Under the pieces are notes generated by a model. It was not told where the DNA came from and searched no databases. It saw only the letters and a program-made list of their open reading frames with translations. From the IMG/VR virus record IMGVR_UViG_3300028453_000025: a stretch of 6,905 nucleotides of DNA. One strand, written 5' to 3'. Source of the DNA: a virus. Taxonomy: Duplodnaviria; Heunggongvirae; Uroviricota; Caudoviricetes. Each line of letters begins with the position of its first letter. The stretch's first letter is position 1. A program made the position numbers and the translations under genes. Shown piece after piece: positions 5,829 to 6,905 of this stretch.

Positions 5829-6905
5829 TTTCCGCCTCCTGCATCCCGCCCACGTTTTGCAGCCAGGGTCCAGGCTGATGAATGAGCTTCTCCGGGTTTA
5901 TCACCGGTCATACTGTTGCAGTGCCACAGCGAGCCCCCCCATGTCACCGTATCGCCGGGGTGGTAGGTTTCACCGGCTCTGAACACACCGCGGTAGAGCA
6001 TCACCGGCAGGGAAAATGTTTTTTCCGTACGCTGACCGCTGCTCTGCCGGACCACCACAGAGAACAACCGTTCACCCGTCATACTGACGTCAATATCCGC
6101 CACCCCGTCAACCAGGCATTCCCATCCCCGCATCCCGTGCGTTTTTTCATACGCCCGCCAGAGTCCGCCCTGGTGTGTGGCATACGTGCCCCGGGGAAAG
6201 GATTTTTGATCGTCAATGGCGGGGTGTATTTCCAGTGCCGTGGCATCACGCCCGTCCTGCGGAGCCGGCAGGGCACTCACCGCATCCAGAACCGCCTTCT
6301 GCAGTACTTCCGGATCGTAGTCACGACCATCACGCGGAACAGGAATATGGCTTACCGCCTCCTTCACCATCTGCTCAATCATCGGACGCACATCATCGGG
6401 AGTAATACTTTTACCGTTCGCCGGTACCGGTATTTTCCCGACAGCATCATTCACCGCCTTCTGCAGAACATCGGGATCATAGTCACGACCGTCGCGCGGA
6501 ACAGGAATATGGCTTACCGCCTCCTTCACCATCTGCTCAATCATCGGACGCACATCATCGGGAGTAATACTTTTACCGTTCGCCGGTACCGGTATTTTCC
6601 CGACAGCATCATTCACCGCCTTCTGCAGAACATCGGGATCATAGTCACGACCGTCNNNNNNNNNNCCATCTGCTCAATCATCGGACGCACATCATCGGGA
6701 GTAATACTTTTACCGTTCGCCGGTACCGGTATTTTCCCGACAGCATCATTCACCGCCTTCTGCAGAACATCGGGATCATAGTCACGACCGTCACGCGGAA
6801 CAGGGATATGGCTTACCGCCTCCTTCACCATCTGCTCAAGCATCGGACGCACATCATCGCCCGTCACGCACTTCTGTAATACCACAGACAGGGAAGCCAG
6901 TTTTT
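5825..6905 (-). CDS. Hypothetical phage structural-module protein with tandem 54-aa repeats and a C-terminal roughly 135-aa non-repeat domain; 5'-partial, interrupted by assembly gap
   Basis: Minus-strand frame is open from the window edge (6905) to the gap; the track's M at 6885 and at 6616 are GTG codons internal to the repeat, not real starts. The 90-aa and 263-aa track ORFs are one gene: the frame break coincides with the N-run, and the repeat consensus shows 35 nt are missing where 10 N were placed (net 25 nt, i.e. +1 frame). Stop TGA at 5825..5827, translationally coupled to the connector gene. Confidence 0.7.
6295..6859 (-). repeat. Intragenic tandem DNA repeat, 162-bp period, about 3.5 copies as assembled, near-identical
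   Basis: The motif ccttctgcag recurs at 6295, 6457 and 6619 (162-bp spacing) and again at 6756 (137 bp, shortened by the gap). Copies 2 and 3 are identical over all resolvable bases; copy 1 differs only in its first 40 nt or so; copy 4 has three substitutions before diverging near 6860. Encodes VLQKAVNDAVGKIPVPANGKSITPDDVRPMIEQMVKEAVSHIPVPRDGRDYDPD, itself two 27-aa half-repeats built around I-P-V-P-x-(D/N)-G-(K/R). Confidence 0.9.
6656..6665. other. Assembly gap (N x10) inside the tandem repeat
   Basis: Ten consecutive N. Flanks align to the repeat unit with 35 nt unaccounted for, so the true gap is 35 nt or 35 + n x 162 nt. Confidence 0.95.

Follow-up and report, generated by a model that had tools for sequence, protein, structure and literature searches.

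Does a stretch of DNA on which a short-read assembly broke down hold a genuine repeat of variable copy number, and what does such a repeat contribute to the protein that it encodes? The question is raised by one end of a 6,905-nt stretch (the window, below) of the IMG/VR virus record IMGVR_UViG_3300028453_000025 (Caudoviricetes), where tandem copies of a 162-bp unit, interrupted by an assembly gap, lie in the 3' part of a minus-strand gene that we call X. An initial annotation, made from the sequence alone, had proposed that this is a coding variable number tandem repeat (VNTR). Our results confirm that the VNTR is real, common in Escherichia coli prophages and ordinary in mechanism. Every testable feature of a coding VNTR was found: head-to-tail units of high identity, a unit length that is a multiple of 3 with the reading frame kept, and a copy number that varies among close genomes. 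The explanation that we consider the best overall, and in which we have high if not complete confidence, is an in-frame coding VNTR in a portal-adjacent prophage gene, together with the mechanism and the consequence for the protein that are put forward below.

As assembled, the array of 162-bp (54-codon) units occupies 6291..6859 on the minus strand, as delimited by Tandem Repeats Finder (TRF), a repeat search, per-unit identities and the typing of units against 84 comparison loci (80 from IMG/VR and four from E. coli). The initial annotation had given the same end and a start at 6295, and the difference from the measured start is immaterial. The TRF call, 6291-6655, has a period of 162 bp, 2.3 copies, 97% matches, 0 indels and a score of 688, and ends at the run of Ns; the repeat search recovered four in-register copies reaching 6859, at spacings of 162, 162 and 137. 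The array is thus composed of U1 (6291-6452), U2 (6453-6614), U3, which is split by the gap (6615-6751), and a partial unit at the array end (6752-6859), all on the minus strand. Each distinct 162-nt unit was given a letter code and arrays were compared as strings; in coding-strand order the window reads partial unit, S, gap, S, S', then a final 25-aa partial. At a lag of 162, positions 6333-6493 are identical to 6495-6655 over an exact run of 161 nt, and at a lag of 137, across the gap, 6529-6655 are identical to 6666-6792 over 127 nt, in agreement with the earlier statement that adjacent copies are identical over about 125 to 160 nt. U1 and U2 match at 156/162 positions (6 differences) and U2 and U3 at 127/127 comparable bases; the 162 nt preceding the array (6129-6290) are 36% identical to the unit, which is chance level. 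Exact runs of such length cannot arise by chance. The unit of 162 bp corresponds to 54 codons and the minus-strand frame is open throughout the array, so that gain or loss of units would proceed in steps of 54 aa, as had been proposed, and the feature is a genuine in-frame minisatellite.

The gap inside the array consists, by direct count, of 10 N (6656..6665). The 35 nt that had been reported for it are the bases that these 10 N replace if one unit is interrupted, as seen when the window is aligned to the complete genome NZ_CP009106. That the assembler failed at this place was correctly recognised, and the repeat is the cause. A suffix/prefix comparison showed that the last 127 nt of the left contig (6529..6655) are the same as the first 127 nt of the right contig (6666..6792), the second overlap copy, and that this is the sole non-trivial overlap between the two; in an exactly periodic array, the overlap could have taken any length from 1 to 162. 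The largest k usually used by SPAdes-type assemblers is 127, and the shared ends are those of a k = 127 de Bruijn overlap at a repeat loop that the assembler left unresolved. Both the exactly periodic stretch (6333-6655, 323 nt) and the exact repeat (161 nt) exceed this k, and because the exact repeat is longer than k, the multiplicity of the graph loop was beyond the short reads and was bridged with 10 N. The base that continues the loop is a G at 6494 and the one that leaves it an A at 6793. Merging the overlap yields 2.67 units, filling in 35 nt yields 3.67, and each further turn of the loop adds one unit; the frame is open under the 2.67-, 3.67- and 4.67-unit models. Since the contig ends share exactly 127 nt, the array in this genome is 2.67 + n units and could be one unit below the number drawn, or above it. 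The suggestion that the real copy number may exceed what is drawn therefore holds in its own direction, and a count one unit lower may also apply. The scaffold as written may duplicate the 127 bases flanking the 10-N gap.

The initial annotation had proposed a comparison of array length among related prophages, and held that an absence of variation among related genomes would speak against it. Abundant variation was found. Unit counts were obtained with the unique flanks of the array (~1 kb on each side) as the query, the span of the match in a record giving the size of the array; rows were taken at even intervals from the ranked list of 1251 matching records, and 59 complete E. coli genomes had full-length matches. 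The most frequent span by far was ~2581 bp, or 3.67 units (48/59 genomes), followed by ~2419 bp or 2.67 units (7/59) and ~2743 bp or 4.67 units (2/59), with single genomes at ~2256 bp (1.67 units, 1/59) and 3068 bp (6.67 units, 1/59). The 84 comparison loci are distributed over the same lengths (1.67 units, n=2; 2.67, n=26; 3.67, n=45; 4.67, n=8; 6.67, n=3), and the DGRDYDP motif recurs at a spacing of exactly 54 aa in 84/84 of them. The predicted variation in 54-aa steps is thus seen from 1.67 to 6.67 units, always in the 54-aa register. It extends to named phages, with 3.67 units in 2851 and 1717 and 4.67 in ORF59 of BP-4795.

Several arrays differ from one another by whole units only, namely IK/IIK, EQJ/EEQJ, EgJ/EEgJ, DO/DLO, ACB/AC#B and AFG/ASSSFG. 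In three such pairs, the flanks are identical or nearly so over 900 bp on each side: L035 and L077 (IK versus IIK, +1 unit) and L029 and L070 (ACB versus AC#B, +1 unit) match at 900/900 positions both upstream and downstream, and L024 and L003 (AFG versus ASSSFG, +3 identical units) at 900/900 upstream and 899/900 downstream. With zero or one flank mismatch per side, and yet one or three units of difference, these pairs indicate that unit gain and loss outpace base substitution. The pair L003 and L004 was also considered as a case of rapid change and was rejected, as its flanks are several percent apart in DNA despite shared neighbour-protein accessions. Units are 95.3% identical within arrays versus 91.4% between arrays, which shows some homogenisation of units within arrays. 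The array of the window, S, S, S', compares with S, S, T in its nearest complete relative (locus L001, NZ_CP009106), and no array among the 84 comparison loci is as homogeneous. The three pairs and the within-array identity are in keeping with the earlier view that the array reflects very recent expansion or ongoing homogenisation.

Outside E. coli, an X homolog of Phytobacter diazotrophicus (L087, 3518-4361) has DNA-level arrays of its own, with periods of 174 and 279 bp and 93-98% identity, and the X homolog of a Pseudomonas strain (L101, 3910-4367) has an array of 162 bp x 2.8 at 93%. Most other X homologs have diverged repeats and no DNA-level array. Recent repeat expansion thus recurs independently in the X family.

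Is the repeat also translated? Among 103 distinct units, 10 polymorphic sites fall on first, 12 on second and 31 on third codon positions, and single-base codon differences are synonymous in 45683 instances versus 16764 that are non-synonymous (2.7 to 1). Such a predominance of synonymous differences shows that the repeat is translated and under constraint, with purifying selection acting on the units at the protein level.

The gene that holds the array enters the window by its 3' part (5825..6905, minus strand, stop codon at 5825-5827), as judged from its translation, the open reading frames (ORFs) of relatives and annotation. It runs off the window end, so that the N-terminal coiled coil of X and its junction with the portal gene fall outside; the array itself sits in the 3' part of the gene. 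Complete relatives place X directly downstream of an HK97-type portal gene in a lambdoid E. coli prophage that resembles Shiga toxin (Stx) phages, the closest named ones being the long-tailed Stx phages 2851, 1717, YYZ-2008 and BP-4795. The segment occurs in 1246/5426 complete E. coli genomes (~23%, megablast) and, with the unique-flank query, in up to 8 places per genome. Nearly all of the 93 phage records with the segment are long-tailed Stx1a-, Stx2c- or Stx2a-converting phages (such as 2851, 1717 and YYZ-2008), and BP-4795 carries it too.

The Prokaryotic Genome Annotation Pipeline (PGAP) labels this gene 'phage portal protein, frameshifted'. Complete relatives show two arrangements: X may be a 407-aa ORF of its own that overlaps with the portal stop, or it may make up the C-terminal 40-50% of a single fused 'portal' ORF. 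The first arrangement is seen in L001, where a 454-aa portal ORF is followed, after an ATGA overlap, by a separate 407-aa ORF holding the repeats, and the second in L002, where portal and X share one frame. The portal hidden Markov models (HMMs) PF04860 and TIGR01537 match only the upstream 454 aa (274 bits), and the 407-aa repeat protein gave no portal match at E <= 0.1 (Pfam) or 0.01 (NCBIfam). The idea that X is part of the portal protein was rejected, the portal HMMs ending before the repeat ORF. By these comparisons, X is not a portal, and its label in the databases was carried over from fused forms: the model of PHROG 2271 (859 aa) is of the fused form and that of PHROG 1289 of X on its own, and both are named 'portal protein'. 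Free-standing X is widespread, cluster P0116 having 432 member sequences.

Whether portal and X are fused depends on the length of a G tract, G5 or G6, in 'TTCAGGGGG(G)AT', which lies four to five codons ahead of the ATG of X (L001, ~8650-8675, minus strand; same site in L002-L084 and L108-L110). With G5, portal and X are two ORFs with an ATGA overlap (43 loci, and phages 1717 and BP-4795); with G6, they form one fused ORF, as in 27/70 scorable E. coli phage loci (about 40%), in phage 2851 and in L003, where it reaches 1021 aa. The same flanking haplotype was found with both G5 and G6. An AGGGGG lies 11 nt upstream of the ATG of X in either form, and to judge by its position could act as a ribosome-binding site in both. 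In the G5 forms, the portal gene ends in A_AAA_TGA, where a -1 slip in the P site would enter the frame of X exactly at its ATG; no canonical X_XXY_YYZ heptamer is present at the portal-X junction of these forms. A fusion to the portal has also arisen independently in a distant relative, P0262 (1237 aa). A second homopolymer lies near the C-terminus of X, a C7 tract (G7 on the coding strand of this minus-strand gene) that is intact in the window at 5934..5940. According to the comparison with related loci, it is one base shorter in 4/80 of them, including L002 and L004 (O157:H7), and the protein then ends in ...VTWGARCGTATV and a stop, with the loss of the last ~35 residues of a domain resembling a carbohydrate-binding module (CBM).

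A HMMER search of 1.84 billion cluster representatives (50%-identity clusters) returned 5674 relatives of X at E <= 1e-3 and 645 at <= 1e-30, with lengths from ~250 to 1237 aa. The relatives that were read are built alike: a coiled coil at the N-terminus is followed by ~27-aa modules, each a helix and a 'PxPxDGxD' loop, in varying number, and then by a strongly conserved C-terminal domain of ~140 aa. The 54-aa unit of E. coli corresponds to two of these modules. One relative, P0223, has collagen-like G-x-x runs in place of the helices; the E. coli protein has no G-X-Y triplet repeats and carries helix-loop repeats instead. A search for related loci with an alignment of the C-terminal domain returned 22 loci. 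The order S78 protease-capsid fusion, portal, X was found in 17/17 loci with enough upstream flank (from Enterobacterales, Pseudomonas, Pseudoduganella, Rhizobiales and one metagenome), one more locus being cut inside the portal gene. The annotated loci have a small ORF between capsid fusion and portal, and a connector match follows X in 15/18 loci examined. X co-occurs with the S78 protease-capsid fusion in every locus examined that has enough upstream flank. Between genera, identity is 59-69% for the C-terminal domain of X and 50-69% for the portal, the former being at least as conserved.

This all-beta C-terminal domain, which in the window covers 5825..6256 on the minus strand (143 aa, 'DGRDATALE...GGGK' and stop), has the CBM5/12 fold in its last ~50 residues. 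AlphaFold2, run on a 46-sequence alignment, predicts a long N-terminal helix, repeats made of 13-17-residue helices with loops of ~12 residues, and the all-beta domain (predicted local distance difference test, pLDDT, ~97), the fold matches being to CBM5/12 and to phage fibre proteins. The three-dimensional fold of CBM5/12 is thus found in the predicted structure; at the level of sequence, the match to PF02839 stays below the cut-off (20.7 versus 26.2 bits, E = 4e-4). A profile search of the PDB gave weak matches to the chitin-binding domain (ChBD) of chitinases (E = 0.003-0.2) and otherwise only designed helical repeats, a composition effect, and a single-sequence search of the PDB gave nothing useful. 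On the predicted model, we infer that each 54-aa unit consists of two amphipathic helices with a conserved (I/L)PxPxDGxD loop after each, and that the array would form a strongly acidic helical spacer, with a charge of about -13 for the rod, between the N-terminal coiled coil and a C-terminal beta domain with a CBM5/12-type tip.

How might such an array change, and what could it do? Units would be gained and lost by replication slippage (slipped-strand mispairing) or by unequal homologous recombination between identical 162-bp units, and recombination among paralogous prophage copies in the same genome, of which there are up to 8, probably contributes. Each unit would add one helical hairpin to the spacer between coiled coil and C-terminal domain, so that copy number would set spacer length. 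A wide range of lengths seems to be tolerated, given that 1.67 to 6.67 units are found in intact ORFs, isolated phages included, which argues that spacer length is loosely constrained. The N-terminal end of X probably lies next to the portal, since many phages have it covalently joined to the portal C-terminus, and by a Rosetta-stone argument the recurrence of this fusion suggests that X binds the portal there. Most likely, X is an accessory component of the portal vertex. In known structures, portal C-termini lie inside the capsid. This general topology, together with the fusion, favours a location in the capsid interior, and an internal X tethered at the portal crown is a serious candidate, if somewhat short of an even chance. 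What speaks for an exposed fibre on the neck or head is the acidity of X together with a fibre-like plan and a CBM-type tip; we give this possibility about one third of our confidence, and a role in assembly only is rather unlikely.

Several alternatives bear on these conclusions. One concerns copy number in the window: the contigs may simply overlap by 127 nt, the genome having 2.67 units and the third full unit being made by the 10 N placed between overlapping ends. The identity of the two ends, the frame preserved on merging and the frequency of 2.67-unit arrays in relatives (26/84 loci, 7/59 genomes) all agree with this; an assembler would normally merge a simple overlap, however, so that the gap left open suggests a loop of uncertain multiplicity or a conflict with other prophage copies, and the closest complete genomes (98% identity) have 3.67 units. 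We consider such an artefact plausible and yet doubtful, and it would leave the reality of the repeat intact, as two and a third units lie within one contig. A different concern is that the repeat encodes another protein, on the plus strand, where the ORF listing has a 299-aa frame (5882-6781). Homology (1359 database proteins, PHROGs), annotation and codon-position bias all fall on the minus-strand frame; the plus-strand ORF was rejected as its antisense shadow, and the chance that it is a real gene is negligible. Finally, X could be a dead remnant in a defective prophage, its length variation being drift in non-functional DNA. Most E. coli copies are indeed marked as 'frameshifted' pseudogenes by PGAP, 4/80 loci have the truncating 1-nt deletion near the C-terminus, and O157 prophages of the same type were scored as portal- or head-defective (PMC2669165): in that study, the Sakai prophages Sp6, Sp9, Sp10 and Sp12 have a slightly different organisation of the head region, and portal function was scored as defective in Sp6, Sp9 and Sp12. 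The 'frameshift', however, is mostly an effect of annotation, as the G5 form is two clean ORFs with an ATGA overlap and both G5 and G6 occur in isolated phages. All 84 arrays (84/84) keep the exact 54-aa register and substitutions are skewed to third positions and synonymous changes, which together argue against a decaying pseudogene, and the X family is conserved and syntenic across Proteobacteria. Neutral decay is thus quite improbable as a general explanation.

It could also be supposed that copy number is itself selected, the locus acting as an adaptive contingency locus in which a hypermutable array samples appendage lengths that tune adsorption, mucus or glycan binding, or DNA ejection. 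Unit change that is fast relative to substitution in the flanks, arrays that arose independently in the Phytobacter and Pseudomonas homologs, the fibre-like architecture with its carbohydrate-binding-type tip and the presence of G5/G6, another hypermutable site, in this gene pair would all fit. Still, a single length of 3.67 units dominates (48/59 and 45/84), and the C-terminal domain is at least as conserved across host genera as portal and capsid proteins, unlike receptor-binding tips. We regard it as unlikely. A broader version is equally speculative and earns little confidence from us: X would be a portal-vertex appendage in thousands of proteobacterial prophage lineages, its form set by two hypermutable tracts, G5/G6 for fused versus separate proteins (with a possible low-level -1 slip at A_AAA_TGA by which the split form makes both) and the 162-bp VNTR for length, the two acting as a joint contingency system by which a phage population would vary the architecture of its virions. 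The preferred explanation, an in-frame coding VNTR in a portal-adjacent gene with spacer length following copy number, has points against it as well. The sequence fits slippage and unequal recombination alike; the model of how the repeats pack has low confidence (pLDDT 50-70); many E. coli copies lie in defective prophages and are annotated as frameshifted pseudogenes; and the evidence on location appears to conflict, the fusion pointing to the capsid interior and the architecture to an exposed appendage. In the open-access literature, to which our search was confined, we found neither virion proteomics nor a structure for X, nor any paper on this repeat or protein.

Coding VNTRs of long identical repeats are well known from the alpha C and Rib proteins of group B streptococci and from other staphylococcal and streptococcal wall proteins. 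Like these, X has long, near-identical units whose length is a multiple of 3, it gains and loses whole units in frame, it differs in length between close relatives, and its array collapses when assembled from short reads. The bacterial proteins, however, are cell-wall adhesins, whereas X belongs to a phage head/neck morphogenesis module, has no signal peptide or anchor and bears no sign of immune or host selection. Repeat-length variation is also known in phage fibres such as collagen-like tail fibres and lactococcal neck passage structures, with which X shares a coiled coil at the N-terminus, a repetitive shaft in which the number of units varies and a carbohydrate-binding-type C-terminal beta domain, and one family member (P0223) even has a true collagen-like G-x-x shaft. 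The gene of X, in contrast, lies between portal and connector genes and not among tail genes, its shaft is predicted to be alpha-helical, and its C-terminal domain is conserved across genera rather than mosaic. Among portal-attached internal head proteins are the C-terminal barrel of the P22 portal and SPP1 gp7/MuF, which is encoded after the portal gene and sometimes fused to it. Similarities to gp7/MuF are the gene position right after the portal, the recurrent fusion to the portal C-terminus and an elongated helical region beside the portal. The gp7/MuF proteins differ in having a MuF or toxin domain, in place of the rod and CBM-like beta domain of X, and no Phage_Mu_F (PF04233) was found in X among Pfam matches at E <= 0.1. 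As for the HK97-type portal (PF04860 / TIGR01537), about 40% of E. coli loci hold X in one ORF with a true portal domain, yet the repeat-containing part has no portal homology and is widespread as a separate protein. X is thus neither a portal nor, by sequence, MuF/gp7, nor a collagen-like fibre.

Next to X on the coding strand lies a head-tail connector gene (5502..5828, minus strand; ORFs and annotation), whose start overlaps the stop of X. This connector gene and the remaining genes of the window belong to the late region of a lambdoid prophage, the others being a partial tape measure gene, the tail chaperones, the major tail gene and genes for head completion. The pair of tail assembly chaperones at 2881-3608 comprises a G-like ORF (3186-3560) and a T-like ORF (2881-3162), and the slippery heptamer of lambda, GGGAAAG, is absent from this pair in the window. 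In L001, a 645-aa 'major capsid protein' (10222-12159) combines an S78 prohead protease with a coiled-coil segment and an HK97-fold capsid domain in one chain; this capsid fusion precedes the portal gene, an unusual order for HK97-like heads. On a metagenomic contig with a distant X homolog (L085, 7941-11105; P0145), a GT-D glycosyltransferase, two methyltransferases and a GT2 glycosyltransferase are found inside the head/neck block, between connector-like and head-closure genes, and this gene set may be a virion-glycosylation cassette.

The locus breaks short-read assemblies of E. coli, as is evident from the best 120 database homologs, most of which are 'partial' portal proteins from ~2-kb contigs, with the precomputed Pfam family PF28083.1. 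It also yields misleading annotations, such as 'frameshifted pseudogene' or 'portal protein'. As a marker, the length of the array and the order of its units could tell Stx-type prophages apart, with the proviso that paralogous copies within a genome would complicate sizing by polymerase chain reaction. Beyond these practical aspects, the locus points to a large, conserved and uncharacterised protein family that is linked with the portal gene in one kind of HK97-like head module, and the tolerance of a four-fold range of spacer length would provide a handle on the position and role of X.

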